In this document: in pieces, positions 10,037 to 60,355 of the stretch
Layout: every line of letters starts with the position of its first letter
Numbering within the stretch: position 1 is the first letter of the stretch
From: an uncultured Patescibacteria group bacterium
GTDB taxonomy: Bacteria; Patescibacteriota; Minisyncoccia; Phycocordibacterales; UBA918
Direction: 5' to 3'
Length of the DNA: 64,000 nt
Assembly (NCBI GenBank): GCA_934699595.1
Contig: CAKUWT010000001.1
Span: 289,033 to 353,032, forward strand
Program-made: the position numbers and the translations under genes
Notes under the pieces: generated by a model
Database searches by the model: none
Seen by the model: the letters and a program-made list of their open reading frames with translations, nothing else
What the model was told of the DNA's origin: nothing

Positions 10037-10602
10037 ATGAAACGTAGATATTTTCTTACTGGTCTCGGCGCAATCGTCTGCCTGCCTGAGGTTGCTGCGG
10101 CGGGACGGTACGTCCTCAGCCGCGACCGGAGCGGAAACTGGCCACAGGGCGACAGGAAGACACACTTATCAGTGTCGACTTCAACACCGCCATGCTGACC
10201 ATCGTCCGCAACGGACAGCTCCTGCATAGCACCAGGGTAGTGCTACCTCACAGTGCGCAGGCCTATCGTTTGCCGGTGCATGGCGTGGTGCAACAAGCCA
10301 TCTGGAAACCATCTTGGACACCAACCGCTGCCACTCGAAAGGCCCAGCCGCGCCTGAAGGCATATTACCGTGGGGGCGAATCCGGGAACGCTATGGGTGA
10401 CATCAAGTTGGTCATCCAGTACGAAGCCGGGAGTAACATTCCCAGCACCGTACGGATTCATGGAGCGGCGGCAGAGGTCGATCTGGGGACCAGGAAATCG
10501 CGTGGCTGTATCCGAGTACAGAACTCGTTCGCTCCCACGCTGCTGCAAGCAGTCAACGAGGGCCAGCGGCTGGGGGTGGTGAGGACATATTTCTACAACT
10601 GA
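10037..10602 (+). pseudogene. L,D-transpeptidase (YkuD) gene with a Tat-type signal; an apparent frameshift separates the signal-peptide frame (10037-10198) from the catalytic-domain frame (open from about 10090, M at 10192, to 10602)
   Basis: Frame 1 gives MKRRYFLTGLGAIVCLPEVAAAG, a twin-arginine signal. Frame 2 gives ...LISVDFNTAMLTIVRNGQ...RIHGAAAEVDLGTRKSRGCIRVQNS, the LDT catalytic HG...SxGCIR motif. The two frames overlap at 10090-10198. The segment is GC-rich (about 60%). A strong SD (GAGGAGGAGGAAGAA) precedes the ATG at 10037. Confidence 0.5.
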
Positions 10603-14353: not shown

Positions 14354-15244
14354 TTACTGATTTAGGATATCCTGTTCAGACTTCTTTTTAGAAAAATAAA
14401 TCAGAAGAAAAGCAAAATAATAAATTAACACTACCGCCATTAGATACCAGTACTGATAATCAGAATCATAGTAATTACGATCACTCCTACTGAAAACCTT
14501 AAACACAAAGCTGCCATAAAGCATTATCAGCGGTGAAGAATAGACGGTAAATTTATAAAGATACAAATAAATTACGTCTCCTAAGCGAAAAGACAATAGG
14601 AGCGGGATTAGCAAAATCAGTAATAGTAAAGCTACCTCTGACAGCCCTATAATAAAATAGTCACAATTATAGCCCGACGGGTCAATTATTGGACATAAAC
14701 CTGTCACAGATATCACCACACTGGGCACCTGCAGAAATATAGCAACTAAAAACCAAATAAATGCCTTTCTCTTTAACCTTTTAACTAACAGAGGTTTCTC
14801 AATAGGCCCGTCTTCTACTTTTATTTTACCGCGCTTAATCCCGTAAGCAGTATAAATGATAACTCCTAATGAAATAAGTATATATGCCAAGCAAGCAAAC
14901 AGGGCAAAAATCATTTTGTAATTTATTCCCAACCAATCAGTCTCCACTACCGTAATTGCATAATAGATATAAATTAATAGCAGCGGTATAGCCACTGAAG
15001 CAAATTTAAACCATCTGAGAAAAACTAACTTATCAAATGGTAAAGTTAATAAGAGTGGCAGACTTAATAGGGTAAAGCTTAGTATGAGAGTGTAAGCATT
15101 CTCAAATGTTACGTAACACCGAAAACTATAAGTGTTGTTTGTTGAGCACAGATTACCCACTTCATAAAAGTACATAAAAATAACTACGGGCACGCAAGTA
15201 AGAAAAATCATCAAAAATGTCCACTTGCTAAATAACTTACTCAT
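14354..15244 (-). CDS. polytopic membrane protein (about 8 TM), hypothetical
   Basis: The hydropathy pattern is strongly hydrophobic. The gene shares a 5' leader motif with the next gene upstream. Confidence 0.45.
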   Translation of the reverse strand: MSKLFSKWTFLMIFLTCVPVVIFMYFYEVGNLCSTNNTYSFRCYVTFENAYTLILSFTLLSLPLLLTLPFDKLVFLRWFKFASVAIPLLLIYIYYAITVVETDWLGINYKMIFALFACLAYILISLGVIIYTAYGIKRGKIKVEDGPIEKPLLVKRLKRKAFIWFLVAIFLQVPSVVISVTGLCPIIDPSGYNCDYFIIGLSEVALLLLILLIPLLLSFRLGDVIYLYLYKFTVYSSPLIMLYGSFVFKVFSRSDRNYYDSDYQYWYLMAVVLIYYFAFLLIYFSKKKSEQDILNQ

Positions 15245-15325: not shown

Positions 15326-15724
15326 TTATTTAGTCTTATTTTTCCTAGAATTATAAGCTGTGTGCACAGCTACCGCCAAAAAAGCTATAAAGTATGCCAG
15401 ATAAATAAAAGGCAGGAAGGCACTTAAAATATTATATCCTGAAAAATAACCTCCACCAATACTCAAAGCGACGGTTGTATAAGTAAAAATAATGGGAACA
15501 GTCACTAGTGTGAAAAAAGAGCAATTATCAAAAAATTTCCTACTAGAAAAAATAGACATGACACTAAGCGGTAAAACCAAGAAAAAACTCCCCAACAATG
15601 ACCAGGCTATGCTGTTGAGAAATTTATAATTATAGACTTCTCCCAAATAACCAAACCCAATGAAACAGACCAAAAATGTAAAGTTTATTAAAAATACATT
15701 TTTTCTATTTAAAAAATTATTCAT
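15326..15724 (-). CDS. small 4-TM membrane protein immediately downstream of the secreted lipase (candidate immunity/partner protein)
   Basis: Four hydrophobic helices in 132 aa. The gap from the lipase stop codon is 6 bp. Confidence 0.5.
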   Translation of the reverse strand: MNNFLNRKNVFLINFTFLVCFIGFGYLGEVYNYKFLNSIAWSLLGSFFLVLPLSVMSIFSSRKFFDNCSFFTLVTVPIIFTYTTVALSIGGGYFSGYNILSAFLPFIYLAYFIAFLAVAVHTAYNSRKNKTK

Positions 15725-22662: not shown

Positions 22663-23256
22663 TCAGTACGAGGTCCGCTGGCTGACGCGCCGCTTATAGA
22701 AACGCACCAAGCGATCCTGCCACGTTAAAGGCAGGGCGGCATTGATGAATTTGAGGGGCTCCATCGCCAGGGCGAAGAGCGGGATTGGGTCCCGCACCTT
22801 CGCGTATTTTAACGACTTCGCAAAGCGTCCACCGATATGGCGATGGACGAGGAACCAGACTCGCGGTATATGCCACGAGAAAGCTCGCACCCGGATTCTC
22901 ACCGGGTGCAATTTGCCCGATCTCCCCCTCGCCGCCAGTTCCTGATACCTCTCGTTCAGATACTCCTCGAAGGTGAGGAGTTCACCGATAGTGTTGAATC
23001 GCCGGGACGACAGGACAACGACCTCGGTACGAGGCACTCCTACCTCGTACAAGTACTCAGCCATCAATTCGGCCAAGGTCTGTCTGAGTCGCGGCAAATC
23101 AGGATTATACCCTGCGGCCACCACCAGTCTTCGACCAGTGCTGCCACGTTCGAACGCCGCCTCATCGAGTAGTCTCTTGGTTCGCAGACCAAGCTCCCCC
23201 TCCTTGGTCATATCATTCCCGAGTATCAGTTCATATTCGTAAGGAACCAGAAACAT
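22663..23256 (-). CDS. DUF218 (YdcF/SanA/ElyC-like) domain protein in a GC-rich segment
   Basis: The motif EVGVPRTEVVVLSSRRFNTIGELLTFEEYL resembles the DUF218 core. Local GC is about 58% versus about 45% in the flanks. Confidence 0.4.
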   Translation of the reverse strand: MFLVPYEYELILGNDMTKEGELGLRTKRLLDEAAFERGSTGRRLVVAAGYNPDLPRLRQTLAELMAEYLYEVGVPRTEVVVLSSRRFNTIGELLTFEEYLNERYQELAARGRSGKLHPVRIRVRAFSWHIPRVWFLVHRHIGGRFAKSLKYAKVRDPIPLFALAMEPLKFINAALPLTWQDRLVRFYKRRVSQRTSY

Positions 23257-28214: not shown

Positions 28215-29306
28215 ATGTCTAAGTTCTTACTCACTCTCCTACTGCTTTTTCCAGGAATATCTCTAGCCCAATCCGGAGTCACCTCTCTACAAAACATTCT
28301 GACTAATCTTACTGTTTTTATTAATAACTTGTTACTGCCTACGGTATTAGCAATCGCTTTTTTAATCTTTGTCATTAATGTCTTTCGCTACTTTGTAGTA
28401 CAAAGCCACACTGAGGAGGGGCAAAAAAAAGCACGGGCTTTGGCTCTCTGGAGTGTGCTAGCCTTCGTAGCTGTCCTTCTTTTCTGGGGATTAACTAGCT
28501 TAATTGTTTCCGGTATCGGACTTACTGATAAATGTATCGATGGTTATGACCGCACTCTTTCAGACTATATAGCCAGGACCCCACTCTGCAGTTCTGTCCC
28601 CCCTAAACCAAAACCAACTCCTCCAGTTCCTCCAACCCCTCCGACCCCACCAACTCCTCCTACCCCACCTACCACGCCTGACCCAGGTGGAATAGGTAGT
28701 GGTGGAACTCCATCTGACACAACGGTTACCATTGCCACCGTCAGGGATAAAACCAAGACTTATTTTGATTCAGTCATGAGCGCCACTTTTGGTCACAACA
28801 CCAACGCCGTAGCAAGTGCCCTACTCGCGGACCTCTACACAGCTCCAAGCAGCCTTACCAGCAACCACGATCGGTCAGTGGCTGCCTACCGACTACAACA
28901 ACTTGGCGTACTATCAAACAAAGAGTTTAATGATTATCTCGCTGCTTTAAATGCTGAAGAAGTTGCTAAAGGATCAATTGTTCGTTTTACGCCAACTACT
29001 GCTAAAGCTGCAGCCATCACCTCCCCCAACGCTGCTCTTAAAGTCAACGCCGACCGCACTTTTACCGCCATGGCTGATATCGGCATTGGTAAAGAGGATT
29101 TGGAAATACTCACCGCCCTCAGAGACTCTCCACTGAAGACCACCGAGAAGATACAGGAGTTTGATTGGATCTATAATTCAGGAACCAGACTTGATGGCAC
29201 CTGGATACCCGCCGATCACGATCCAAACGGAAAAGTTAGGAAAGATTACGTAGCCGATACCAATGCCGCCGCCTTTTTCGCCGGCAGCACAGACTTTATA
29301 GAATAA
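28215..29306 (+). CDS. secreted/membrane protein with a signal peptide, two hydrophobic helices, a Pro/Thr-rich (PTPP)n linker and a roughly 230-aa C-terminal domain
   Basis: The N-terminus reads MSKFLLTLLLLFPGISLAQS. Two TM-like segments are followed by PKPKPTPPVPPTPPTPPTPPTPPTTPDP. Confidence 0.45.
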   Translation: MSKFLLTLLLLFPGISLAQSGVTSLQNILTNLTVFINNLLLPTVLAIAFLIFVINVFRYFVVQSHTEEGQKKARALALWSVLAFVAVLLFWGLTSLIVSGIGLTDKCIDGYDRTLSDYIARTPLCSSVPPKPKPTPPVPPTPPTPPTPPTPPTTPDPGGIGSGGTPSDTTVTIATVRDKTKTYFDSVMSATFGHNTNAVASALLADLYTAPSSLTSNHDRSVAAYRLQQLGVLSNKEFNDYLAALNAEEVAKGSIVRFTPTTAKAAAITSPNAALKVNADRTFTAMADIGIGKEDLEILTALRDSPLKTTEKIQEFDWIYNSGTRLDGTWIPADHDPNGKVRKDYVADTNAAAFFAGSTDFIE

Positions 29307-29435: not shown

Positions 29436-29619
29436 ATAAAAAATCTCATACTATTCAAACTCATCACGGCAACAAACTCTCTTTTGTCTTATCCTTTTTG
29501 GCCTGGTCTTTCCCAGGAGTCTGATACCACTTCAGAGTGTTCTGTATCTTCTACTCATTATCTGCTCAATTGAGGCAGATAATATCGACCAATTAGCCGT
29601 TTGTGATTTGGGTCACCCC

Positions 29620-31098
<1,479 letters not shown>

Positions 31099-31572
31099 AC
31101 AGGTACTGAAAAAGTAAACTTTTTCGTGTATCTGCGTTTCTGAGCATATGGTGTATCTGTACTGATTGATACTCCGCTCGAAGAAACATTTTTCCAATTA
31201 AGGATAAGACAAAAGAAAGAACCAAAAGAAATTTTAGTTTTCTTTTGCCTATGTGCTGTGATGCATACTACATCATTTTACTTTTAACAAAATAAAAAAG
31301 ATGTCGTACATCATATCTAATCTGCATTAGATATGTTTAGTATGAAATTTTCAAATAACAGCCATTCTCTTTTGAGTATTTCCTGGTCATAAATAAGGCA
31401 AATAAATAGAGCAACGAAGTCTCGTTCCCCTTTCTCCTCGACCAGTCAACAATCAAACGAACAGTGGGAGCATTATACAGAGTCTGAAAAATAATGCAAG
31501 CTTTTTAACTTACTCACCGACTTGAAAAAGTCTAGCTACGCAACCGAGACCGCGAACTATCAAAACACCCTG

Positions 31573-31612
31573 TTTTTGGTGGGGGTTTCTATACAGAAAC
31601 CCCCACCAAAAA
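31573..31612. repeat. perfect 17-bp inverted repeat with a 6-nt loop upstream of the 16S
   Basis: The sequence is tttttggtgggggtttc-tataca-gaaacccccaccaaaaa. Confidence 0.6.
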
Positions 31613-32019
31613 CCATCAAAAAACCCGCTCTGACAAATCAGGCGGGTGGATTAATTAGGCGGAGCTAAAGTACAGACAACTGATCGCTGAGGAATACCAT
31701 CATGGATACCCTCCCGCCAGTAGTCGTCAATAACTCTCCTAAGAAACCTTCTTCAAGGGTGACCCAGTCACTCACTAACGGTCAAGCCGCAGTGGTGCGA
31801 GTCCTCCAGGAAGTTAACCCGGCAAAGATCAGAACTGAGCGCTAGCACGAAGCTAGGCTCGCTCGATCAAGTCGGGACTAGGTCGAAGACTGACAGTGTC
31901 AGCCCCCACCCTTAGTAAGGTCGACTAGATTTAATCGAACTGACAAAGGGTGGATGAACAAAGTAGAAAGGAAATGGTTTGGAGTGGGCAACCAGAATCA
32001 ATGGTTGCCCACTCCTTCC

Positions 32020-33390
32020 TTACGCCGCCGCAGAAGTCGGCCTGGCCGGAGCCATAACCCCAGTCAGGCGACCATCGCTCCAGGCACGGGCAATCACCCT
32101 GTTCAAACTCATCGCTTTGATGGCTTGGGTCTGATCAAGGATACCAACCAGTTTCAACTGGCCAGCTTCCGTGGCCGTGGCCTTGAGCCAGAACTCCTCT
32201 CCAGCCACCGTAAAGTGGAGGAAGGATTCCTTGCCAGGCTCTTGGAGCATCGCCTCGACCACTTCAGGATTCAAGTAGGTGATATTCACCCGCTCTTCCT
32301 GTGTGGCCGCATTAAGTTCTTCGCGGATTCCTCGCGCGTAGCGGCGAGTTGTCCGCGAATAAGCCTTGGCTGTGTCGGCTGCTTCCATTGCCTGTCCAGC
32401 TTTATCATCAGCTGTGTCGGCAGTGGTCTTCGCCGTCATTGCCGCCGCTTGCGCGCTGGCAACTAGGTCGCTCATCCTTGTGAACGCTTCGGTCTGGTCG
32501 CCGATTTTCTTCTGGAGATCTTTTTGTGTGAGGAAGACGATAATCGTCCCCACCAAGGCCAGCAGAGCCAGAATCGCAGCTCCTAATGCCCACCAGAGAG
32601 ACTTGCCAGCAGTGGTCGCAGCGTCAGTCGCTTTGGCGTCAGCCACCGCCACGTCGGTCTTCAGCTGACCGACATCGGCCTCAACAGCATCAAGCCGAAG
32701 CTCAATGCCCGCCAAGTGCGCAGCGATATCAGCCATGGTCGCCCGATTCTCGCGAATCTGCTCCACGACCTCCGCAGTCGGCACGCCGAGGTTTTCCAAC
32801 CCCGCCGTCACCAACCTCTCCACCTCACCGCGAGTCATGGACTCGGTCGGTGCGACGGTGATCTTGGGGAAGGTCTCCTTCACCAGAGCAATCACTTGCT
32901 CTGGTGTGAGCATGGTCGACTCGACCTTGCTCGCCCAGTCCTCGAACGCGGCTTGAAGCTCGGAAGCTTCCGTAGCCGCGATCGCCGGCTCAGGGGTTCC
33001 TGCCTTCGCTGGCAGAACCATTCCTTCTGTCGTCGGGAAAAAGTAACTTTTCCCCTTCATCAGATAGTAATGGCTCTCCTGCGAGGGCTGCTTCGGAAAC
33101 AATTCCCTGTTCCCGAAAAAGACTGCTTTCATGCAGTCAACAGTGACTGCTTTCGCCAGACCGGCTGGCCTGACAAAGTCAAGGTAGCAGCCATTCCAGA
33201 GCGAGTCGCGCCCCGTCATGGCTGTCCGACTTTCCCACACCTTCACCATTGGCAAGTAGGGCGAGGTAACCTCGATTTTCTTGCCAGTGGAAGTGAAGGT
33301 AGTTTGGTACGCCCAGGTGGGTGCACCAAATCCTATCCCTAGGATGAAGACGGTCACCAAGGTGGCCGCCCGCTTCAGAATATGTCGCAT
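32020..33390 (-). CDS. secreted hypothetical protein with an Ala-rich coiled region and a central TM segment (GC-rich island)
   Basis: A signal peptide (MRHILKRAATLVTVFILGIGFGAPTWA) is present. A strong SD (AAAGGGAGG) lies 7 nt upstream. A terminator hairpin (ggagtgggcaacc...ggttgcccactcc) follows the stop. Confidence 0.45.
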   Translation of the reverse strand: MRHILKRAATLVTVFILGIGFGAPTWAYQTTFTSTGKKIEVTSPYLPMVKVWESRTAMTGRDSLWNGCYLDFVRPAGLAKAVTVDCMKAVFFGNRELFPKQPSQESHYYLMKGKSYFFPTTEGMVLPAKAGTPEPAIAATEASELQAAFEDWASKVESTMLTPEQVIALVKETFPKITVAPTESMTRGEVERLVTAGLENLGVPTAEVVEQIRENRATMADIAAHLAGIELRLDAVEADVGQLKTDVAVADAKATDAATTAGKSLWWALGAAILALLALVGTIIVFLTQKDLQKKIGDQTEAFTRMSDLVASAQAAAMTAKTTADTADDKAGQAMEAADTAKAYSRTTRRYARGIREELNAATQEERVNITYLNPEVVEAMLQEPGKESFLHFTVAGEEFWLKATATEAGQLKLVGILDQTQAIKAMSLNRVIARAWSDGRLTGVMAPARPTSAAA

Positions 33391-33447
33391 AGCGACCTCC
33401 CTTTTTTCAGGTTATTTTTATCAGGCGGTCTGGCGACCGCCTGATAA

Positions 33448-34023
33448 TCACTGCATCAGCACGCATGTCGGACAACCACTCAAAGTCGAATTGACCTGGG
33501 TGGCATTGCTCGAACTTGAGCCGGCAGCGGCGTTGGAGTTACCTCCTTGTCCACCCTGGCCACCTTGTCCGCCTTGACCACCAGACGCTTTGACTGTTGT
33601 CTCGGAGCTGTTCTGGTTGGCGTTTTCGTTGGACGCCCCCGCGACAGCGGTGGCGCCCTCAATCGCGATCTGCGTACCACAATTACCTTTGCACCGTCCG
33701 GCCAATGCGCCAGCGGTTTGGATAGCCGCAGCACCCATGCCGCTCGTCATTCCGACGACGACTTGACCAGCCACCGTCGGTCCGATTTGGACTTCGCCAG
33801 CGGTCTGCACCACCCGGCCGTCAGCCGTGCGGGCGTACATGCCTGCCACCGTTGCCTGTCCGTTGATGCTGTTTGAGCCACTGGCGACAGCCAGGTATTG
33901 GCCGTCCGGCATCAACGTGATGTCTGGGGCCTTCGGTTTTTCCATCGTCCCCTGCGGTCCACAGGCGGCGAGAAACAAAGTTGCCACCAAGGACAACCTT
34001 ACCAGAACTTTCTGTTTCATTTT
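33448..34023 (-). CDS. lipoprotein with a GGQ repeat and a C-terminal CPTC motif (GC-rich island)
   Basis: The start MKQKVLVRLSLVATLFLAACG carries a lipobox (LAAC). The repeat GGQGGQGGQGGQGG is present. The protein ends SGCPTCVLMQ. Confidence 0.45.
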   Translation of the reverse strand, partial: KMKQKVLVRLSLVATLFLAACGPQGTMEKPKAPDITLMPDGQYLAVASGSNSINGQATVAGMYARTADGRVVQTAGEVQIGPTVAGQVVVGMTSGMGAAAIQTAGALAGRCKGNCGTQIAIEGATAVAGASNENANQNSSETTVKASGGQGGQGGQGGQGGNSNAAAGSSSSNATQVNSTLSGCPTCVLMQ

Positions 34024-34048
34024 TTGTTCCTTTCTGGATGAGCTGGTT

Positions 34049-34714
34049 TCAGCGGATACCGAAGCCCTGGCCCGAGGTGCCAAAGCCGCTTTGGTGTCTT
34101 GTGGAGTACGTCTGCCCGAGGACAGTCACCCCCGGAATATACACGCCGCATAGGTAGAGACCATTCGTCACTACCGATGGCGTGCTGTGATACTCAGTCC
34201 AGCTCCGCGACGCCGGTTTCATCGGCGGCGGTGCTGGAGTGATCACTTTCCAGACCAAGTTCAAACAACCAAGCGACACGGCGGTCACCCAGCTACCGTC
34301 CGGTCTTTCGACCTGGATCAGCTGCTCTTTGTTGTAACACCTCCGAGAGAACCAGCTGATCGTGCCATCCGCACGAAGACCGCTGGTCTCGATAGTGTCG
34401 CCATTGCAAGCAACGGTGCGCAGCTTTCCCTGCTGGGAAAGCTGCTGAAAAACAGCCTCCGTATTCGGAATGCCAGCAGCCATCGCCAACTGCTTCCGCA
34501 CGGCCGCATAGGCAGCATTGGAAGCAAAGTAGTGGCGAGGATTGGCCACTAATTCGTTAAGAGTCGGCGGTGTTCCGCCTTTACCCAGATAGTATTCCGT
34601 TTTTGCAAACGGAGCCAGAGTGGCAGCGCTGGCAAAAGTTGCCAGCGTCAAAGTCATCGCCGCGACCAACGCGGTGATGATTGCTCCCGCGCGGGCGCGC
34701 GACGAAGTCAACAT
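34049..34714 (-). CDS. secreted hypothetical protein (GC-rich island)
   Basis: The start MLTSSRARAGAIITALVAAMTLTLATFASA is signal-like. An SD (AAAGGAAA) lies upstream. The gap to the next gene is 25 bp. Confidence 0.4.
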   Translation of the reverse strand: MLTSSRARAGAIITALVAAMTLTLATFASAATLAPFAKTEYYLGKGGTPPTLNELVANPRHYFASNAAYAAVRKQLAMAAGIPNTEAVFQQLSQQGKLRTVACNGDTIETSGLRADGTISWFSRRCYNKEQLIQVERPDGSWVTAVSLGCLNLVWKVITPAPPPMKPASRSWTEYHSTPSVVTNGLYLCGVYIPGVTVLGQTYSTRHQSGFGTSGQGFGIR

Positions 34715-35103
34715 TTTTATTTCCTTTCTTGTCAAGGAACAGTCGGAACTGTCCTCTTGGTTAAACCTCAGCCGTTTCCTAGTTTGCACCACAGAGACGG
34801 CTGGGGTAGTTCCCTTTTCCTAGCGAGAACCGTAGCATACTTTAAAGAAAAAATCAAGTCTGGAGACACCATTCTGGTAATTAAAAAAGCTCACCGAAAA
34901 ATAAAACTGGCGAGCAACAAAAAACCCCGCCGAAGTGAAAAGTCACATTCATACGGGGTTATCTTTTTCTCTCGACCAGCGAGAGGAATTCTTGGGGAGT
35001 AACTATCTACCTTAGACAGCCGCTCGGGTGATGGATGTGGCTCGTGGACACACTCATCGTGGATAGGTGTGGGAAGGCGACAAGTCGCCCTCCCACCAAA
35101 AGC

Positions 35104-35544
35104 TCATTTGGTCGAAAAATCGAGCTTGGAACCGAAGGTGAACTCGCCCATGGCGGCCGAGCCCGACTGTGCAGTCACACCACCCGTGCCGACGCTCTTC
35201 GCGTAGGTATTGCCCTTCGCCAACTGGTTGGCGTCAAAGCCGGAGAAGAGCACCTGGTCGCCACACCCGGCGCCGCAGTTCGGGTCGACCTTGATCGACC
35301 CGCCGCCCCAGGCGTTGTAGGAATCCACGGTGGAGGATTCCACCACTCCTTCCTTGTCGCCGAAAGCAAAGCCTTGGCCTTGGACCTGTCCGGTCCAATT
35401 CATCTTGAGGTCCATCTGCAGCACCGGCTGTTGCGGGGTCTGCTGCTGCCCACCACTGCAGCCCCAGCAGCCCGCGGCCGCAAAGCCGGCAGTGCCGAGA
35501 GTCAGGGCGGCGGTCGCGATCGCGATCTTAAAGAACTTGTTCAT
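35104..35544 (-). CDS. small secreted Gly/Cys-rich protein (GC-rich island)
   Basis: The start MNKFFKIAIATAALTLGTAGFAAAGCWGCSGG is signal-like. An SD (AAGGAAAA) lies upstream. Confidence 0.4.
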   Translation of the reverse strand: MNKFFKIAIATAALTLGTAGFAAAGCWGCSGGQQQTPQQPVLQMDLKMNWTGQVQGQGFAFGDKEGVVESSTVDSYNAWGGGSIKVDPNCGAGCGDQVLFSGFDANQLAKGNTYAKSVGTGGVTAQSGSAAMGEFTFGSKLDFSTK

Positions 35545-35786
35545 GGCGGTTTTCCTTTTCAAAACCGGTTGAGATTTTGGAGCCGAAGCTCCAGTGAACG
35601 CTCTGCCAAAAACGGCAGACGTCCGAGGAAAGGGGTGACCACTCGCAAAAATGATCCGCACGCCTTATCCGTTCTCAACAGAACTGCCCACGAGTATACA
35701 GACATCCACAAGTTTGTCAAGAGCTCCCGTCTGTATTACCAAGCAAACCTTCAAAAAGAAACCTCGGCCTCATCATGAGGGCTAGT

Positions 35787-35839
35787 ATCAACAAAAAAGC
35801 TGGACGTTGCTTGGTTCTTTAAACCAAGCAACGTCCAGC
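35787..35839 (-). terminator. strong rho-independent terminator (19-bp perfect stem) after the 35852-36193 gene
   Basis: The hairpin agctggacgttgcttggtt-cttta-aaccaagcaacgtccagct is followed on the minus strand by TTTTTTGTTG. Confidence 0.6.
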
Positions 35840-35851
35840 TAGTAAACTCCC

Positions 35852-36193
35852 TCATATCTCAGCATCCGGTCGAGTTTTTTTAGATATTGGTGGGGCCGGA
35901 TACTTTTCAAAAGAACAAGAAAAACTCCCAGTGATTATTTCTTCCTTGGTACAGGTAATCATGTAATCCTTCTGTCCCACCACAATATCATAGTGAGCAT
36001 TGGGATAAATATCACCATAGAGAATCACCCTTGATGAGCTCTGAAGTTCAAACAACAATTCTTGAATGGATAACTGAACACGGAGGTTAAAGTTCTCTTT
36101 AGCCAACTTATCAGTGAAGCTGTTCAAAAAACGAACTTCCTCACTGCGGGCTCGGTAACTATTTTCTATTGAGATTAAGCTCGTCGTAACCAC
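35852..36193 (-). CDS. hypothetical protein (AT-rich gene inside the GC-rich island); the start is uncertain (GTG, or a frameshifted upstream ATG)
   Basis: An ORF of about 113 codons with a strong downstream terminator. An SD-preceded ATG at 36236 is in another frame. Confidence 0.35.
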   Translation of the reverse strand: MVTTSLISIENSYRARSEEVRFLNSFTDKLAKENFNLRVQLSIQELLFELQSSSRVILYGDIYPNAHYDIVVGQKDYMITCTKEEIITGSFSCSFEKYPAPPISKKTRPDAEI

Positions 36194-36352
36194 GGCGGCA
36201 CTGACACCAGTGCACGACCAGTCTGAGAATTTTTCCAGTCTTACGCATCGTCGCTTCCCTCCTCACCTTACTCAGATTACTAGAAGTCTTCTATGTAAAA
36301 ACCCGGGCAAGAATCCTTGCCCGGGTTGGTGATTCGCGAAGCGAATCCTGTC

Positions 36353-36847
36353 TTACTTGCTGATGACACCAGCGCCGGCCTGAGCGCCCGCGATCGCGGT
36401 CGTATCCTGAACGGCAATGGCGACCGCGCCGCCGCTGTCGCCGGCACCATAGACCTTGGTGACCCCGAACTGGGCCATAGGCTCGGTGTGCCCGGCATAC
36501 ACGATCTGCGAAGTCCCGCAGGCCTTGATCAACCCTTGGTTGGCCAGGGAAAGATCGCGGTTGTCGCCGGTCGGCGACGTCGCCGGATTCTCCGACACCA
36601 GGATATAGCCAGGGGCGAACAGTCCGCCGCCGCGCGCGACTTTCGTCGCTCCGCAGCGGAACTCCGTGTCCTCGGCGACCACCTTGCCGCCGGCCAGCCT
36701 GGTGCCGGCCGGCAGCGGGATCACCTTCTCGAAGGTGTCCACCCCAGTCACAATACCGGGTGCCGTCGTCGGCACAGTGCCACAGGCGCCGAGGCCCATG
36801 ATCGTGGCGGCGGTGATGATCAAACCAAATTTGCCGTGTACCTTCAT
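36353..36847 (-). CDS. lipoprotein, hypothetical (GC-rich island)
   Basis: The start MKVHGKFGLIITAATIMGLGACG carries a lipobox. An SD (GGGAGAAG) lies upstream. Confidence 0.4.
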   Translation of the reverse strand: MKVHGKFGLIITAATIMGLGACGTVPTTAPGIVTGVDTFEKVIPLPAGTRLAGGKVVAEDTEFRCGATKVARGGGLFAPGYILVSENPATSPTGDNRDLSLANQGLIKACGTSQIVYAGHTEPMAQFGVTKVYGAGDSGGAVAIAVQDTTAIAGAQAGAGVISK

Positions 36848-37013
36848 CTTCACTTCTCCCGTTTCAAAGAAGATTGACAACTTCCCGCAGACACACCATT
36901 GTCTCTGCCAGTTTGTCAATTCTGCGCCTGAGGTTAGCAAACAATTATTGTTTTGTCAAGAGGAGCATAGAAGCGAGTGGCTGGGACTTTACCTTAACTG
37001 CTACTCACCGTTA

Positions 37014-37098
37014 AAAATAACCGCCGCCGACAAAGTCGGTGGCGGTTATTTTCACTAACTCAAATATAAAAATAGCCCCCGCATTTGCATGCGAGGGC
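37014..37098 (-). terminator. two tandem stem-loop terminators downstream of the 37144-37587 gene
   Basis: The hairpins are aaaataaccgccgccgac-aaag-tcggtggcggttatttt and gcccccgcat-ttgc-atgcgagggc. Each is followed by a T-run on the minus strand. Confidence 0.5.
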
Positions 37099-37143
37099 TG
37101 AGGGTCACTGACAGTTTTTGCCAACAACCGATGCTTGAGCCCG

Positions 37144-37587
37144 TTACCGGGGGGGGCCGTAGCCGCCGGTGGACGGCTCGATGATGCCGCCGGCGTTGAC
37201 ATAGCCGGAGTTCGTCCCATTTTCCTGGGTCATGACACGGGCCGGGGCCCTGATGCCGAAACTCGCGGCCGCCGCCTTGCCACGGGTGCCGCTGGCAGCA
37301 TCCGAGAAGGAAACGACTTGGCCCTGGCTGGCGCCGTTCGGCCCCGTGATCAGGATGTCGGCGGATGCGTTGCCCTCGAGCTGTTTGTAGCTTTCGCTCT
37401 CGGCCTTGGTGAGGTCACCCTTGGCCAGCCCGACGTTGTTGGTGTTCGTGAACCCGTCGTACCAGCCGGAGGCCTGCAGCGAGGTCACGTTCAGCCGGGG
37501 ATGCTTGATCCCGCCAGCAAAGACGGGGGCAGCGACGAGAGACATGATCGCAGTGGTGATGGCAATCGTTTTGGCTTTGTTGAACAT
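37144..37587 (-). CDS. secreted hypothetical protein (GC-rich island)
   Basis: The start MFNKAKTIAITTAIMSLVAAPVFAGG is signal-like. An SD (AAGGAG) lies 6 nt upstream. Confidence 0.4.
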   Translation of the reverse strand: MFNKAKTIAITTAIMSLVAAPVFAGGIKHPRLNVTSLQASGWYDGFTNTNNVGLAKGDLTKAESESYKQLEGNASADILITGPNGASQGQVVSFSDAASGTRGKAAAASFGIRAPARVMTQENGTNSGYVNAGGIIEPSTGGYGPPR

Positions 37588-37690
37588 CGTCAACTCCTTG
37601 TAAAAAGATCTCCCTAACACCCCCTTGGTGCTGGGGCGTTCCTCTGTGGAACAGCAGACGTAAGTTAACACAAGTAGAAAAAAATACAAT

Positions 37691-37718
37691 ATTGACAATA
37701 TGCCAAAAATATATACTA
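37691..37718 (+). promoter_or_regulatory. candidate sigma70-like promoter for the 37824 gene
   Basis: A TTGACA is followed 14-16 nt later by TATACT / TACTAA. The spacing is suboptimal. Confidence 0.25.
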
Positions 37719-37823
37719 ATTTAAGAGCCCCATCCCCTTCTTTAGCCGGGACCTTTTGATCCTTCTGATCCTCTTCCCCAGCGACCACCCGAGACCAACA
37801 AAATCTGTTACAATGGTAGCCGT

Positions 37824-38528
37824 ATGTCTTCAGAAAAACCAGAAACTATCGTGATGTCAGTCGGCGGCTCGCTGATTGTGCCCGACCAAATCGACACCGG
37901 CTTCCTTACCAATCTTAAAAATTTTATTAATGAGCAACTAGCGACGAGTCATCGTCGTTTTATTATTATTGCCGGCGGCGGCCGTACCGCTAGACGCTAT
38001 CAGGATGCGGCCGCGGCTGTTTCGGAGCTGGCTCGCGACGACCTTGATTGGCTAGGCATTCATGCTACCCAGCTGAATGGCCACCTCTTGCGCACCGTAA
38101 TGCGGGAGCACGCCTACCCGATCATGATTAATAACCCTGACGATATTCTTGACGTTCCCGCTCGAGAACGGCTCATCATCGCCGCTGGCTATCGACCCGG
38201 TTGTTCGACTGATTTGCGCGCTATTCAAATTGCCGAACGCACTCATGCCAAGAAAATCGTCAACTTGTCCAACACCGATTACGTCTACGACAGCGACCCC
38301 CGCACCAATCCAGAGGCAAAAAGAATTGAGACCACCACCTGGCCGGAGTTCCGCAAGTTGATTCCTGAGGAGTGGGACCCAGGACTATCAGTCCCCTTCG
38401 ATCCAATTGCGGCTAAGGCCGCAGAACGCCTACACCTAGAGGTCGCCCATATCAATGGAACCAACCTCTCGGAGCTAAGTCTCTACCTTAATGATCAAAA
38501 CTTTGTGGGAACCAGAATTACTTCTTAG
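37824..38528 (+). CDS. pyrH: UMP kinase-like amino-acid-kinase-family protein
   Basis: The motifs MSVGGSLIVP and IIIAGGGRTARRY fit the carbamate/UMP kinase fold. The gene symbol is tentative. Confidence 0.5.
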   Translation: MSSEKPETIVMSVGGSLIVPDQIDTGFLTNLKNFINEQLATSHRRFIIIAGGGRTARRYQDAAAAVSELARDDLDWLGIHATQLNGHLLRTVMREHAYPIMINNPDDILDVPARERLIIAAGYRPGCSTDLRAIQIAERTHAKKIVNLSNTDYVYDSDPRTNPEAKRIETTTWPEFRKLIPEEWDPGLSVPFDPIAAKAAERLHLEVAHINGTNLSELSLYLNDQNFVGTRITS

Positions 38529-49716: not shown

Positions 49717-49736
49717 GTCTATCTTCAAAACTTTAA

Positions 49737-49845
49737 GTTGGCGCCTACCTACTCTTCCCCAATTAAGGAGTACCATCGGCGATGGAGGGCTTAACTGCCG
49801 TGTTCGGAATGGGAACGGGTGTACCCCCTCCGCTGAAGCACCAAC
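49737..49845 (-). rRNA. 5S rRNA
   Basis: The reverse complement reads GTTGGTGCTTCAGCGGAGGGGGTACACCCGTTCCCATTCCGAACACGGCAGTTAAGCCCTCCATCGCCGATGGTACT...GGCGCCAAC, a conserved 5S core. Confidence 0.8.
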
Positions 49846-50551: not shown

Positions 50552-51296
50552 CATCCCAGGTCCCGTATTACTACGGGGATTGGACTATATGTTCTCCATT
50601 TCAGGAGGTTGACGTTTAGTCTCTACGGGGTCAATATCGTGTTTTTCGTCGTTTAGAGTAATTCAATTCTCTGAAGTAATCAATTTTCTTCAACATTTTA
50701 GTAAAATCCTGCTGAGAACTCAGCTTCTTCTTATCTTCTAAAATCTCAAGCAGTAAATCTGCTTGGAGTCTCTTAAGGAATAAGAAAGGTTTTACTTTGT
50801 CAAGAAAATCAACAAGCTCAGCCTGTTTATTGATTGTAAATTCATACATCTCATCATTTCTTATGCGCAATCTACCGTAACCGATCCTTTCCATCAACTT
50901 TGAAAAGTTGGTATCGGTCGCCTTCTGAAAAAAGGCAACGTAAGGTGCAATTTGGTAACCATATCGATAACTCGAATTTGGTTTTGCGCGCACATAGATA
51001 CTTCCGTCTCCATCTAAGAGACCCGCTAAGTATGCGTAGAAATTTTCTTGATTTGTCGACATAACACTGACTTCCCTCGGTATTATCCTATTTTAACTTA
51101 GGACTCCACCGATATAGTCAACTTCTCTCCACAATATTTCTATTGTGGGCCGCCGTGAATGATGTCTTTTTGAATACTTTTTGGTTAAACCAGTATTCAC
51201 CTCGGGTTTAGATTGGTCGAGCACCTTTTATAACTAAACAGCTACAAAGGTTTCTTTGTCCTTTAAACATTATTAAATAATGGAAAAAGGTGCTCG
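50552..51296 (-). mobile_element. group I intron in the 23S rRNA at the I-CreI-type site (E. coli about 2593, ...TTTAGACCGT^CGTGAGACAG...)
   Basis: The exon junction can be reconstructed from the conserved flanking 23S sequence. The intron ends in G after an exon U. It contains the LAGLIDADG ORF. Confidence 0.6.
50631..51062 (-). CDS. single-motif LAGLIDADG homing endonuclease (143 aa, I-CreI-like)
   Basis: The motif YLAGLLDGDGSI is near the N-terminus. The ORF lies wholly within the 23S intron. Confidence 0.7.
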   Translation of the reverse strand: MSTNQENFYAYLAGLLDGDGSIYVRAKPNSSYRYGYQIAPYVAFFQKATDTNFSKLMERIGYGRLRIRNDEMYEFTINKQAELVDFLDKVKPFLFLKRLQADLLLEILEDKKKLSSQQDFTKMLKKIDYFRELNYSKRRKTRY

Positions 51297-51323
51297 ACGG
51301 TCTAAACCCAGCTCGCGTGACTT

Positions 51324-51356
<33 letters not shown>

Positions 51357-51910
51357 GCTCCAGCCCCAGGATAAGTCGAGCCGACATCGAGGTGCCGAAC
51401 CGTGCCGTCGCTATGGACGCTTAGGCACGACTAGCCTGTTATCCCCAGGGTAACTTTTATCGGGTAATCTCCGGCAGCATCTAAAGCCCACCGTCGGTTC
51501 ACTATGCTCCACTTTCGTGTCTGTTTGACTCCTAAGTCTTACAGTCAAGCTGGTTTATGCCATTACACTATCAGCACGGTTTCCATTCGCGCCTAACCAA
51601 CCTTGAGACCCCTCCGTTACTTTTTAGGAGGGTAGCGCCCCACTAAAACTGCCTGCCACACACTGTCCCTGCCAGGTTTTTCCTAAGCGGGTTAGAGACT
51701 ACCGAATTAAAGAGAGGTATTTCACTGGCGACTCCACGGTACCCGAAAGCCCGCTTCAAAGTCTCCCTCCTATGCTGCGCATTAAGTCAATAGCCCCAAT
51801 ATGAAGCTACAGTAAAGCTCCTGGGGTCTTTCCGTCTAACTGCAGGTAACCGGCATCTTTACCGGTATTGTATTTTCACCGAGCTAGTCCTCGAGACAGT
51901 TTCCCAGTCG

Positions 51911-51950
<40 letters not shown>

Positions 51951-52950
51951 ATACGCTCTATTTTTCCTTCTCCTAAACATCTTGCAAGCAAGATATTTAG
52001 ACATTTCACAATAGGACTCTATCTTAGCCCACGAACCTAAATAAATTTAGTCGTTACGGGCCAGCAACATTTGGTCTCTTGTTGGTTGCTGTTGGACAAA
52101 CTGCACCTTTCAGTACAGTAGGTAACTATGGCTAGGCTATTTAACCTATAATCGTTCCAGTCCTGGAACGTACTTTCAAGAAAAATACGCTCCACCTTAG
52201 AACGATTATAGTTATCGCTGACATTTACCGGGGCTTATACAGCCCAGCAAAGCAATCCGAAGATCACTTCACCATCCGTATTTAACCTTCCGGCATAGGT
52301 CAGGCGTCACCCCCTATACATCCTCTTACGAGTTCGCAGGGAGCTGTGTTTTTGTTAAACAGTCGCCAGGAAATCTTTCGCTGCGGCCTTTCTATCGCTA
52401 GAAAGGCAGGCCTTATCCCTAAGTTACGGCCGCTTTTTTGCCGAGTTCCTTGAGGACCAATCACTCGTTCGCCTTAGTCTTCTCGACCCTACCACCTGTG
52501 TCGGTTTGCGGTACGGAACCATCACGTTTATGCTTAGAAGTTTTTCTTGGAAGCGTGCTCCCTGACATCGGATCGGCCGAAGCCTCACCTTTAGACTGAA
52601 CTCGGAGTATTGCTAGACGGATTTGCCTATCTAGCCTCCTCGAACCTCCAACGGCAATCCAGTAAGCCGCGTCAGGTACAACCCTCCGTCCCTCCATCGC
52701 AACGTAACAGTGTGCAGGAATATTAACCTGCTATCCATCGAGTCCCCCTTTCGGGATTCCCTTAGGACCGACTAACCCTTCGCTGATCAACATAGCGAAG
52801 GAAACCTTGGTATTTCGGCGGGCAGGGGTCTCACCTGCCTTGCGGTTACTTGTGCCGGCATTCTCACTTCTGTACGCTCCAGATGAGGTCTCCCTCACCA
52901 TTCATCGCAGAACAGAACGCTCTCCTACCACTCGTACACTTCATTGAGGA

Positions 52951-53170
52951 TTCAATCATAAACTGATTGAAAAAAGGAAAACTGTTGAGGGAATTCCTTT
53001 AAGGAGCTCCTTAGCACCCCAGTGTAACTGGCCACTCGAGTTTATCTAGAAAACTCTCTTGGATATTATTATATGTGCTTACCTGTGAAGATCAGGAGAG
53101 GTCTCGCGAACCTGGTCCTGCATCAACTGGGTGTTTCCCTCAACAATCTCAGAGACTAGCTCTGAAGTAT
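52951..53170 (-). other. 220-nt insertion (IVS-like) in 23S helix 45, flanked by a perfect 17-bp inverted repeat
   Basis: The arm GTACACTTCATTGAGGA at 52934-52950 is the reverse complement of the arm at 53171-53187. The equivalent E. coli helix is a short hairpin. Confidence 0.5.
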
Positions 53171-53888
53171 TCCTCAATGAAGTGTACGAATTCGCAGTTT
53201 CGGTAATATGCTTGAGCCCCGATCATCTTCGGCGCAAGGACTCTCGATCAGTGAGCTGTTACGCTATCTTTAAAGGATGGCTGCTTCTAAGCCAACCTCC
53301 TGACTGTTTGTGAATCCTCACCTCCTCGTTTGCACTGAGCATATATTTAGGGACCTTAACTGGCGATCTGGGCTGTTTCCCTTTTGACCAATGGAGCTTC
53401 TCCCCCATAGTCTAACTGCCGAGCTATAACCAACTGGTATTCGGAGTTTGATAAGAGTAACGAGATTTCTCCCTGTTTACCCTTTCCAGTGCTCTACCCC
53501 CAGTGGGATCACTCGACGCCAACCCAAAAGCTGTTTCGGAGAGAACCAGCTATTACGGAAATCGATAAGCTTTTCACTCCTTACCACAAGTCATCCCCGC
53601 GTGTTGCACGGCGCGTGGGTTCGGGCCTCCACGACCTTTTACAGTCGCTTCACCCTGCTCATGGCAAGCTCTTTCCGCTTCGGGTCGTACCCCTACCCTC
53701 GAATTGTAAACAATTCATTCGCACTATTCATGCTCGCTTTCACTATGCCTCCGTGGGGTTACCACTTAAACAAAGGATAAAGGTACACTCGCCGGCTCAT
53801 TCTTCAATAGGCACGCCGTCACCCGGATAAATCCAGGCTCCGACTCCTTGTAGGTGTATGGTTTCAGATCTATTTCACTCCCCTCTCC

Positions 53889-53933
<45 letters not shown>

Positions 53934-54909
53934 TTTTAAGGATATTTAGCCTTACCAGTTAGTACTGGTGGATTCATTCAAGCTATTCATGTCTCGAACT
54001 ACTCAGGAGCAAAAACCAAGGAGATGTATAAATTTCAAATACAGGACTATTACCTTCTGTGGTCGAACTTTCCAGATCGTTTTTCTATCTATACATTTTG
54101 TAACTCCTCGCAACTAAATGCTGTCTTTGTCCTACAACCCCATTATTGTAAACAACAATGGTTTGGGCTCTTCCCGTTTCGCTCGCCGCTATTCAGGGAA
54201 TCGCGAGAACCTTCTTCCTGAACATAATGGCGCTCGCGCACCAATGTTCAGAATAAATCCTGAACATGATGCCAAGCATCTGTTCAGAAAGAAAATTCTC
54301 TTTATTGCTTTCTTTTCCTATAGGTACTGAGATGTTTCACTTCCCTACGTTCGCTCTCTCATACAAGAGTACCTGCCGATGGCAGGTGGGTTTCCCCATT
54401 CGGAAATTTCCGGGTCAAAAGTTATTTGGCACCTCGCCGAAACTTATCGCAGCCATATCACGTCCTTCATCGCTCCTTAAAACCTAGGCATCCGCCATAC
54501 ACCCTTACATTCCTGCAAGGAATGCTGTACACCGCTGTACAATTTTATTTGAGTGTTTGTGATCATGAGACCCTACAATAAAATCTCATGACCCTTCTTT
54601 TGTGTGCTGGGGACGAAAAGACCCGTATCGGATAATTGATACTTTATTGGGTCAAACCCAACACACATTTTTACCTGCCACATATTTTAATAAATTAAAA
54701 TATGTGGATGCCAGTGTGCGTCGAACACACTGGACTTGTCGAACCACCCCTTATCAAAGGTGGTTCTGAGAATATGCAGTTTTCAAATAACTGCGTACTA
54801 TTCATTGAAATCTTAGAAAGAAAAATCCGCGTTCTCGCGGCACAAAAAACGAAAGTTATCTGAGCGCGCTGCGTTACTTTTTTCCCAATCCCATAAGTAC
54901 GTGAGTGCT

Positions 54910-57543: not shown

Positions 57544-57993
57544 TCAGTAAGCAAGGTCTTCTTGACCTTGCTTATAGCATTCGAGAATCCGTTTGAGATT
57601 CCGCCGATGCTGGGACATCGCGAGGGCCAAACTCGCCATGACTTCGGCAGACAGACTGGCAGACGGCGTCGTGAGCAGCTCCTCAAACCAGCTCATCTCG
57701 ACCTGCTGCGAATCCTCTGGTGCTGGGTGAACGGCACCCGAAGCCAGGTTAATGCGGCTAGCAAAAGCCCGCCGTATCAAGGCCACCCCGACCACCAACT
57801 CCTCCCGGAAGGATATGTCTTCCGAATCACTCCCGACACCCTCACTCCAGAGAGTGGCGATGAACCTCAGTTCCGCCTGATACCAAACTAGTATCAGGTC
57901 AAGTCTGGCCTGCTGGGTGACAGTGGTGAAAAGCTTCTCCACCAGCCGGGTAACGGCCTCCACCCTCTCCGGATTCTTAAAAAGAACCGTCAT
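57544..57993 (-). CDS. hypothetical protein
   Basis: The only evidence is the ORF itself, which has moderately higher GC. Confidence 0.25.
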   Translation of the reverse strand: MTVLFKNPERVEAVTRLVEKLFTTVTQQARLDLILVWYQAELRFIATLWSEGVGSDSEDISFREELVVGVALIRRAFASRINLASGAVHPAPEDSQQVEMSWFEELLTTPSASLSAEVMASLALAMSQHRRNLKRILECYKQGQEDLAY

Positions 57994-60284: not shown

Positions 60285-60355
60285 CGGGGTATAGTATAGT
60301 GGTAGTATCTGCCCATGGGGTGGGTAAGGCATCGGTTCGATTCCGGTTACCCCGA
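60285..60355 (+). tRNA. tRNA-Pro (anticodon GGG)
   Basis: The sequence folds as a cloverleaf. The acceptor stem CGGGGTA/TACCCCG is 7 bp. U8 is present. The D-loop AGTGGTA carries G18G19. The anticodon stem TGCCC/GGGTA has loop A-U33-GGG-G37-T. The T-arm is ATCGG-TTCGATT-CCGGT. The discriminator is A. Confidence 0.7.

Follow-up and report, generated by a model that had tools for sequence, protein, structure and literature searches.

A GC-rich block of secreted-protein genes adjoins the 16S rRNA gene

How does a genome whose 16S rRNA carries an altered anti-Shine-Dalgarno (anti-SD) sequence come to hold a compact block of GC-rich genes, each led by a Shine-Dalgarno (SD)-like motif? We addressed this question in a 64,000-nucleotide stretch of contig CAKUWT010000001.1 from an uncultured Patescibacteria group bacterium, hereafter the window, where six minus-strand genes (A to F, 146-456 aa) form a contiguous block at 32.0-37.6 kb adjoining the 16S gene. 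An earlier note made from the sequence alone (the original prediction) had proposed a foreign origin for this block. Our analysis indicates that it is probably an old, lineage-specific and fast-diverging cassette of envelope-protein genes, fixed in position and already present in the ancestor of a Kaiserbacteria-like family of Paceibacteria. The high GC content, the foreign-looking codons and the ribosome-binding sites would then not mark a recent import, which corrects a tempting mis-annotation. The block also stands out as a conserved and hypervariable locus for envelope proteins, in a large group of bacteria that are uncultured and probably depend on hosts.

The genes and their borders are as follows, where GC3 is the GC content at third codon positions, f numbers denote protein families and a slash marks a predicted cleavage site.

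37824-38528, plus strand: pyrH (UMP kinase), the conserved right-hand border of the slot
37144-37587, minus strand: gene A, 147 aa, Gly/Ala/Asn-rich, signal peptide …VAAPVFA/GG, GC 0.64, GC3 0.84
36353-36847, minus strand: gene B, 164-aa lipoprotein, lipobox LGA/C, GC 0.66, GC3 0.81
35104-35544, minus strand: gene C, 146 aa, GC3 0.80, leader AAAGGAAAA
34049-34714, minus strand: gene D, 221-aa secreted Cys-containing protein with a Pro-rich linker, family f8, leader AAAGGAAA
33448-34020, minus strand: gene E, 190-aa lipoprotein (LAA/C), family f7, leader AAAGGAA
32020-33390, minus strand: gene F, 456 aa, family f12, GGGAGG leader at 33396-33401
31100-31980, minus strand: non-coding spacer between the cassette and the 16S gene
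29638-31097, minus strand: 16S rRNA gene (Rfam)

The block (31640-37800) has a GC content of 0.555, compared with 0.445 for the rest of the window without rRNA, and is the clear GC maximum, the runner-up 6.16-kb stretch reaching 0.486. In 1-kb bins, GC was 0.53-0.59 between 32 and 38 kb and 0.37-0.50 over most of the window. In 300-bp bins, the gene bodies of the block lay at 0.60-0.67, and the spacers together with a further open reading frame (ORF), ORF x, at 0.40-0.48. An island of about 60-65% GC, as originally described, is therefore right as to a GC-rich block beside the 16S gene, but 60-67% is reached only inside the gene bodies. The proposed deviation in composition and codon usage was confirmed: GC3 of genes A to F is 0.64-0.84, against about 0.44 in native genes, and splits into about 0.8 for A, B and C and about 0.65 for D, E and F. 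Codons ending in G or C are increased for all amino acids, and Ala, Gly and Thr are enriched.

We read signal peptides and lipoboxes directly from the protein sequences. As had been predicted, all six genes encode an N-terminal signal peptide, with clear lipoboxes in B (LGAC) and E (LAAC). The predicted cleavage sites are VFA/G in A, LGA/C in B, ASA/A in D, LAA/C in E and TWA/Y in F, while that of C is ambiguous (AAG/C). The SD site claimed for each gene was also found, as an SD-like motif 5-6 nt before the ATG in 6/6 genes.

Such a block could be an artefact of chimeric assembly, or its ORFs could be spurious and the GC-rich DNA non-coding. The antisense ORFs are indeed long, and one public annotation called an antisense ORF in place of gene A. 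They show the mirror pattern, with high GC1 (GC at first codon positions), which identifies the minus-strand frames as coding, and the signal peptides, the SD-plus-ATG starts and homologues elsewhere support the same genes. Further, the window agrees base for base, over both borders, with a European Nucleotide Archive (ENA) scaffold and with a Logan contig from an independent assembly. Since two independent assemblies agree over both junctions, the block is not a chimera, and the chance of an artefact is negligible. In its longest copy, the contig measures 454 kb.

Related cassettes occupy the same slot in other species

Starting from a pyrH alignment, we extracted 80 loci with 10-kb flanks from GTDB species representatives (labels L003-L082). 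The pyrH homologues run to thousands at about 70% identity, and the named ones belong to Patescibacteria, Paceibacteria, Kaiserbacteria or Nomurabacteria. In 49 of the 80 loci, the 16S gene lies upstream of pyrH, oriented as in the window and 0.3-7 kb away, and 21 of these 49 pyrH-16S slots hold at least two SD-led secreted genes. Counting the stretch upstream of pyrH, 31 species have at least two such genes.

Among relatives at 92-95% 16S identity, the gap between pyrH and 16S usually spans 4-7 kb. The genes that fill it lie on the minus strand and encode lipoproteins and other small secreted proteins, and AAGGAG or GGAGG leads nearly all of them. At least one SD-led secreted slot gene was found in 10/10 relatives with full-length 16S of at least 92.1% identity, and at least two in 9/10. 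A homologous or analogous cassette, likewise SD-led, secreted and for the most part enriched in GC, thus sits in the slot of all ten, which contradicts a recent or strain-specific import. Nor is the island absent from close relatives: the families of D, E, F and B are shared with them, the closest pyrH being 76% identical and no relative of the same genus being present in the collections. The genes are thus largely syntenic in relatives, the result that the original prediction had itself named as speaking against its reading.

The slot genes follow a recurring order. First comes a very GC-rich gene of the class of gene C, for a small Cys/Gly-rich protein of about 150 aa that combines a signal peptide with CxxC and, at its centre, a Cx2-4C motif; second, a secreted Cys-containing protein of 220-300 aa (families f6, f8 and f21, with D in f8); third, a lipoprotein of 150-245 aa (f7, f9 and f13, with E in f7); and fourth, a protein of 400-560 aa with the architecture of F (f4, f12, f22 and f32, with F in f12). 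Sometimes a protein of about 250 aa (f5) follows as the fifth, which is not the case in this window. Genes C, D, E and F would be the core genes here, with A and B as accessory members.

Slot genes related to D, E, F and B were found in other species by BLAST and phmmer. Gene B has a homologue in the same slot of L075 (36% identity, E 6e-12), and gene D has homologues in L038, L062, L063, L017, L032, L025 and L076, its family f8 being aligned together with f6 and f21. In profile-profile comparison with hhalign, f4, f12 and f22 were joined at 95-99% probability, and f7, the family of E, was joined with f13 at 97% and with f9 at 88-91%, giving 88-97% for the joined set overall. The domain order of F is common to 14 family members, which have just 12-22% identity to F of the window. 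Cassette proteins have diverged to about 20-35% identity between species, compared with 63-69% for UMP kinase, SecD and SecF. Within the window, no paralogy was detectable among the six genes.

A rough neighbour-joining tree of 16S sequences places cassette bearers to either side of its midpoint root. Read most simply, the common ancestor of the family already had the cassette, and several losses followed. Every member with a readable 16S tail has the altered tail, so that the cassette and the non-canonical tail coexisted through the history of the clade. Across species we observed synteny, family relationships, motif conservation and a recurrent GC excess at codon positions 2 and 3.

The GC excess recurs across species

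We compared composition in 31 species, each with at least two cassette genes and at least four native neighbours. Mean GC3 was 0.546 in cassette genes versus 0.416 in native genes, and was higher in the cassette in 27/31 species (Wilcoxon p = 2.6e-6). GC at second codon positions was raised by 0.087, with more Ala, Gly and Thr, and GC1 by 0.029. The uniform shift to codons ending in G or C looks like compositional pressure rather than ordinary selection for optimal codons.

In L005, L012, L026, L032, L033 and L037, the first cassette gene is the GC-richest, with a GC3 of 0.78-0.82, and the other genes lie at 0.32-0.50. Since the first gene is consistently the richest, the GC excess is gene-specific as well as locus-specific.

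The GC3 excess would thus reflect a persistent force acting on this locus, not a recent GC-rich donor. One candidate is GC-biased gene conversion through recombination between the very conserved 16S and pyrH arms; another is selection on the cassette mRNAs. The possible origins of the excess are an ancient import into the family ancestor, ongoing exchange with GC-biased gene conversion, and mRNA selection.

Recent import, cassette exchange and descent

Recent horizontal acquisition from a GC-rich, SD-using donor would make GC content, codons and SD motifs unameliorated donor traits. It would account for the GC3 and codon shift of the window genes, for leaders that look like canonical SDs and for proteins that are singletons at 90% clustering, and the split between A-C and D-F could then record separate arrivals. 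Against it stands the same slot in other species, with homologous D, E, F and B families, SD motifs and GC excess, which largely refutes it. The spacers of the island have the low GC of the host. Pfam, PHROGs and NCBIfam gave no match to an integrase or transposase, no bordering direct repeat or attachment (att) site was found, and the nearest tRNAs lie beyond the 16S gene (27882) and at 60.3 kb; the absence of an integrase or tRNA boundary had been noted correctly.

The search for a donor lineage suggested by the original prediction gave none. An exhaustive phmmer search of 1.84 billion representatives with F returned F itself and one weak match, and a word-indexed search returned F only. A profile of D found nine proteins, of which the only named one is a Kaiserbacteria protein. 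No relatives of F or D were found in Joint Genome Institute (JGI) metagenome contigs, and the cassette had no phage or plasmid match. Given the slot synteny and the failure to find a donor, we set recent import aside as very improbable.

The block resembles a classical genomic island in its deviant GC, codon usage and translation signals and in its accessory-type secreted products. It differs in having no integrase, tRNA or att borders, in occupying the same site in many species, in its host-like spacers and in the lack of a detectable donor. Variable surface loci between conserved genes are known from the pneumococcal cps locus (dexB/aliA) and the E. coli O-antigen locus (galF/gnd). The slot studied here is like them in its fixed position between housekeeping genes, divergent contents, atypical composition and surface products. 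Unlike them, it encodes small secreted proteins, lipoproteins and a coiled-coil membrane protein instead of sugar-synthesis enzymes, its GC lies above that of the genome and not below, one border is the 16S gene, and exchange is only a candidate process.

Such exchange could take the form of recurrent cassette replacement among Paceibacteria by homologous recombination over the 16S and pyrH arms, with the high GC3 coming from biased conversion or from a GC-rich pool. This overlaps with an old, fixed cassette, the main difference being the mode of inheritance. It would fit that the flanks have changed extremely little (identity 89-95% for 16S and about 70% for the pyrH protein), that cassette proteins retain about 27-37% identity in comparisons in which housekeeping proteins reach 63-69%, and that the GC3 excess recurs in 27/31 species. 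Families are also combined as in a mosaic: f7 is accompanied by f12 in L012 as in the window, and by f4 in L048, L052 and L023, and the partner of f8 is f7 in the window and f16 in L063 and L038. This pairing hints at exchange, although the apparent mosaic may arise from BLAST thresholds that cut a continuum of divergence. No recent exchange was detected, there being no near-identical cassettes between distant species, and L015 and L020, which have all four families in common at low GC, suggest plain vertical descent there. Altogether, we regard recurrent replacement as possible but unlikely, and an old cassette already present in the family ancestor as the probable explanation.

Several observations count against an old, lineage-specific envelope cassette. 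Below 92% 16S identity the cassette is patchy (3/11), and several distant relatives have none in the slot; a gain by ancient transfer, after the loss of the anti-SD, is consequently possible. Genes A and C have no alignable homologues, and as none was found in relatives for gene A, it counts as accessory. The identity of cassette families correlated only weakly with that of housekeeping proteins, and because native neighbour families used as controls behaved likewise, this test is uninformative and leaves vertical descent and exchange between lineages unseparated. Four of the 31 species (L015, L020, L031 and L052) show no GC excess and L066 a small one, all with low-GC cassettes. The existence of such cassettes means that the excess is not required for function, and as all five retain all their SD motifs at low GC, the motif is independent of GC. 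For the function of the products, searches of curated families gave nothing beyond coiled coil, and AlphaFold2 models were unusable (pLDDT, the predicted local confidence score, 48.6 for D from a nine-sequence alignment and 46.2 for F from a single sequence). Finally, the motif fits a canonical anti-SD better than the resident 16S tail.

Cassette genes keep SD-like motifs, native genes probably have short leaders

We counted SD-like motifs, defined as GGAG, GAGG or AGGA at -18 to -5 with -40 to -27 as the control window, in 128 slot genes chosen solely by position, strand, signal peptide and length. The motif was present in 79% of these cassette genes versus 2% in the control window, and AAGGAG in 25%. 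Its spacing peaks at 6-7 nt before the ATG, and the aligned logo reads AAAAGGAGA (A-A-A-A-G-G-A-G-A). Among 718 neighbour genes of the relatives, it was present in 7% versus 5% in the control, that is, at background level.

In the window, gene A has AAGGAG 6 nt ahead of the ATG (GGAG at 37594-37597), gene B has the leader GGGAGAAG with GGGAGAA at 36854-36860, and AAAGGAA is present in the leaders of C, D and E. Some string like GGAG, GAGG or AGGA precedes about 7/48 of the other ORFs. The statement that native genes show essentially no SD was thus nearly right, given this number and the background level among the relatives' neighbours.

Native genes instead carry TAnAAT hexamers ending 5-9 nt before the ATG. 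These are about ten-fold enriched, in native genes only, and T stands at position -1 in 65% of native genes (701-718 neighbour genes of related loci). This suggests that native mRNAs are mostly leaderless or have very short leaders. Genes outside the cassette show neither the motif nor a long leader, and where their promoters are recognisable, the -10 box lies 5-9 nt before the ATG. Cassette genes would be expressed from leadered mRNAs with an AAGGAG-type motif 6-7 nt before the ATG.

The motif was kept while the proteins diverged to about 20-35% identity, which argues for purifying selection and hence for use, as a neutral hexamer would have been lost. It presumably functions in translation initiation. 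Conservation at a fixed spacing speaks against the earlier suggestion that the ribosome may make poor use of these SDs.

Three other GC-rich genes of the window (GC3 0.56-0.67), at 22663-23256, 57544-57993 and 59737-60060 on the minus strand, have G-rich SD-like leaders (GGGAGATGAGGG, AAGAGGGGGGGGA and AATGGAGGGACAAG). None has a signal peptide, and two lie near tRNA-Pro at 60285.

The motif fits a canonical anti-SD better than the resident 16S tail

The non-canonical anti-SD that the original prediction had considered for the resident ribosome is present: the 16S tail GAUUAAUUCCAAU has AUUCC in place of the anti-SD core CCUCC.

29638-29651, minus strand: 16S 3' tail GGAUUAAUUCCAAU opposite the consensus GGAUcACCUCCUUu in the covariance-model alignment

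The extended tail GGAUUAAUUCCAAUUGGA (29638-29655, minus strand) is identical in 20/20 relatives whose 16S 3' end was recovered. A search for a canonical anti-SD, both in the rest of the 16S sequence and downstream of the gene as a possible extra exon, gave nothing convincing. That about half of Parcubacteria have lost the anti-SD is already published (PMC9297842). The locus is therefore a natural test case for translation: SD motifs persist, apparently under selection, in a small set of genes of a lineage that is reported to be without the anti-SD (PMC9297842), which raises the question of what recognises the SD once its classical partner is lost. Apart from that report, we found no description of such a cassette in the literature on SD in Patescibacteria, the candidate phyla radiation (CPR) or Parcubacteria.

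Two features of the tail may be noted here. The segment UCCAAUUGGA is a perfect palindrome, which could self-fold or pair between molecules, and the conservation of the tail runs beyond the usual mature end.

The resident tail can pair only with GGAR over 4 bp, that is, with GGAA, or with GGAG through a G-U wobble. After GGA, the cassette leaders have G in 63 cases versus A in 29, despite A-rich surroundings. At logo position -1, A stands in 72/92 and U in 6/92, and at position -2, A in 55/92 and U in 15/92; the resident tail would need U at both. Positions -2, -1 and +3 thus fit the canonical tail and not the resident one. For cassette leaders, predicted duplexes with the canonical tail average -7.1 kcal/mol, and those of a control stretch from these leaders -2.7 kcal/mol; the corresponding averages with the resident tail are -3.8 and -1.7 kcal/mol. 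Native leaders give no duplex signal with either tail.

The GGAG motifs might nevertheless be ordinary SD sites that pair with the remaining UUCC, in a helix that is weak but sufficient for the few leadered mRNAs. The UUCC tail is invariant in the 20 relatives, cassette leaders bind the resident tail better than their controls do, the leaders of C, D and E have AAAGGAA, and a spacing of 6-7 nt is typical of SD sites. The preference for a canonical partner at all three discriminating positions (G over A, -1 and -2) and the far stronger predicted pairing with the canonical tail speak against this explanation. We consider it a serious possibility, somewhat short of an even chance.

A bolder proposal is that a family without a canonical anti-SD has kept AAGGAG sites at canonical spacing on one envelope cassette since its common ancestor, and that a non-classical reader recognises them. 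The motif matches CCUCCUU, the lost partner, better than it matches AUUCCAA of the resident tail. Such a reader could be a protein factor, a different element of the rRNA or a subset of specialised ribosomes, and surface proteins would then have a translational regime of their own, marked by the motif. We put this forward tentatively and think it rather doubtful.

A partial parallel exists in Bacteroidia, exemplified by rpsU of Flavobacterium johnsoniae, where, as here, a genome without SDs overall has a tiny, specific set of genes with strong ones (PMC7797042, PMC9976891, PMC13000453). The ribosomes of Bacteroidia are SD-blind because an intact anti-SD is sequestered by bS21, bS18 and bS6, and the SD-led rpsU forms a regulatory loop (PMC7797042, PMC9976891, PMC13000453). 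By analogy, a rare SD-led gene set suggests a special regulatory or translational regime in both groups. In Bacteroidia, however, the SD-led gene encodes a ribosomal protein, whereas here the motif leads an envelope-protein cassette; and since the anti-SD itself is changed here, from CCUCC to AUUCC, instead of being intact and sequestered, the mechanism is not simply transferable.

The predicted products may form a surface assembly

The predicted products of the cassette are exported or lipid-anchored and rich in Cys motifs, Gly, Ala, Ser and Thr. In gene C, the signal peptide precedes GCWGC and a body rich in Gly, Gln and Ser, and NCGAGC forms a central motif. The gene resembles the 'P1' class that stands first in the cassettes of many relatives and has a signal peptide, CxxC and a central Cx2-4C. 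Gene E has a Gly/Ala-rich body with CKGNC, a C-terminal GCPTC motif and a GGQ x4 repeat. In gene F, the signal peptide is followed by an N-terminal domain of about 100 aa, an Ala-rich coiled coil, a transmembrane (TM) helix (about 267-289), a cytoplasmic coiled coil and a C-terminal domain of about 90 aa ending in AA.

The seven ORFs (A to F and ORF x) had no match in Pfam, NCBIfam, PHROGs or PADLOC except coiled-coil and Alanine_zipper noise, and Pfam likewise gave only such noise for all members of the D, E and F families. In profile searches of the PDB, the D family had no match, the E family matched only lipoprotein signal peptides and the F family only coiled coils. The best match of the F-family profile was the coiled coil and TM helix of SlaB (8qox_B, E 5e-8), limited to those segments, and the next were sigma-1, trimeric adhesins and spike S2. 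Curli or functional amyloid subunits were considered as an identity for A, C and E and rejected, with no Pfam or NCBIfam match at E <=0.1.

SlaB of Sulfolobus acidocaldarius, a surface-layer stalk protein (PDB 8QOX chain B, PMC10903991), resembles the predicted F in the order of its parts, with an N-terminal domain behind the signal peptide, then a long coiled coil of heptads and a TM anchor. The stalks of trimeric autotransporters and of reovirus sigma-1 are of the same coiled-coil type. Unlike in SlaB, the TM helix of F lies in the middle, with a cytoplasmic coiled coil and a C-terminal domain behind it, and the match, confined to coiled coil and TM helix, may be compositional. We therefore take the likeness as a resemblance in predicted architecture and claim no homology.

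On this architecture, F would be membrane-anchored, with an external head, a coiled-coil stalk and a cytoplasmic tail. The products may form an assembly at the surface or in the envelope, in which the F stalk would anchor, hold or present secreted partners, and the very high divergence may reflect diversifying selection at an exposed surface. Of the surface or adhesion role originally suggested, the secreted or surface reading fits the signal peptides, the lipoboxes and the order of head, coiled coil and TM helix in F. In organisms of this kind, surface proteins are obvious candidates for host contact.

Other elements of the cassette and of the window

The several hairpin terminators noted earlier are present after A, B, ORF x, E and F. 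Together with the further elements of the slot they are as follows.

37074-37099 and 37014-37052, minus strand: two hairpin-plus-T-run terminators after gene A
36297-36325, minus strand: hairpin terminator after gene B, CCCGGGCAAG-GATT-CTTGCCCGGG-TTTTT, read from sequence
35852-36248, minus strand: low-GC (0.40) insert within the island
36159-36248, minus strand: 29-codon SD-led ORF (leader GAGGAGGGAAG) in the low-GC insert
35852-36193, minus strand: ORF x, 113 codons, in a different frame from the 29-codon ORF
35798-35840, minus strand: perfect 19/20-bp hairpin terminator after ORF x
35693-35720, minus strand: near-consensus sigma-70-type promoter TTGACA-16-TATACT about 150 nt upstream of gene C (consensus match only)
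33418-33447, minus strand: hairpin after gene E, TTATCAGGCGGTC…GACCGCCTGATAA, read from sequence
31981-32015, minus strand: hairpin terminator after gene F
31572-31613: 19-bp hairpin in the spacer between the cassette and 16S
31430-31540: AT-rich 16S leader/promoter region, partly conserved in relatives
31200-31219: one arm of the stem bracketing the 16S gene

The stop of D and the start of E are separated by 28 nt, and E and F by 57 nt with the hairpin after E. Because of the short distance, D and E probably share an operon; in L012, P2, P3 and P4 lie at similarly short distances. ORF x lacks a signal peptide and an SD and has no homologue. It is doubtful as a gene and may be an orphan gene or insert, or the remnant of a disrupted gene. 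No RNA family was found in the island with Rfam at relaxed thresholds.

Between F and the 16S gene, at about 31690-31730 on the minus strand, GGCGGGAGGG precedes a mini-ORF of 12 codons, MMVFLSDQLSVL. Relatives often have the f5 gene of about 250 aa at this position, of which tblastn found no remnant in the window.

The 16S gene is bracketed by a 20-nt inverted repeat (29477-29496 / 31200-31219), like a processing stem. The rRNA genes are unlinked, with the 23S and 5S genes 18-20 kb away from 16S, and a gene on the opposite strand separates tRNA-Ile(GAU) from 16S.

51240-54518: 23S gene (Rfam)
49736-49845: 5S gene (Rfam)

The 23S match covers 3279 nt of the window versus a model of 2925 positions, which suggests insertions.

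Just downstream of 16S, at 28215-29306 on the plus strand, lies a gene for a 363-aa protein with a long PTPP repeat and a weak T4SS_pilin match just under the Pfam cut-off. Homologues at 38-48% identity also lie near the 16S gene in relatives (L004, L013, L011 and L026 among others).

Another local GC peak is a 136-aa ORF at 10192-10602 on the plus strand (GC 59%), which has no SD-like leader and encodes an L,D-transpeptidase (YkuD)-like motif, …VRIHG…SRGCIRV…. Two adjacent low-GC genes (0.31-0.34) at 14354-15244 and 15326-15724 on the minus strand have a near-identical 20-nt leader, TAATAGGTAATTAATTTG(A/G)T, before the ATG, which suggests a local duplication or a shared control element.

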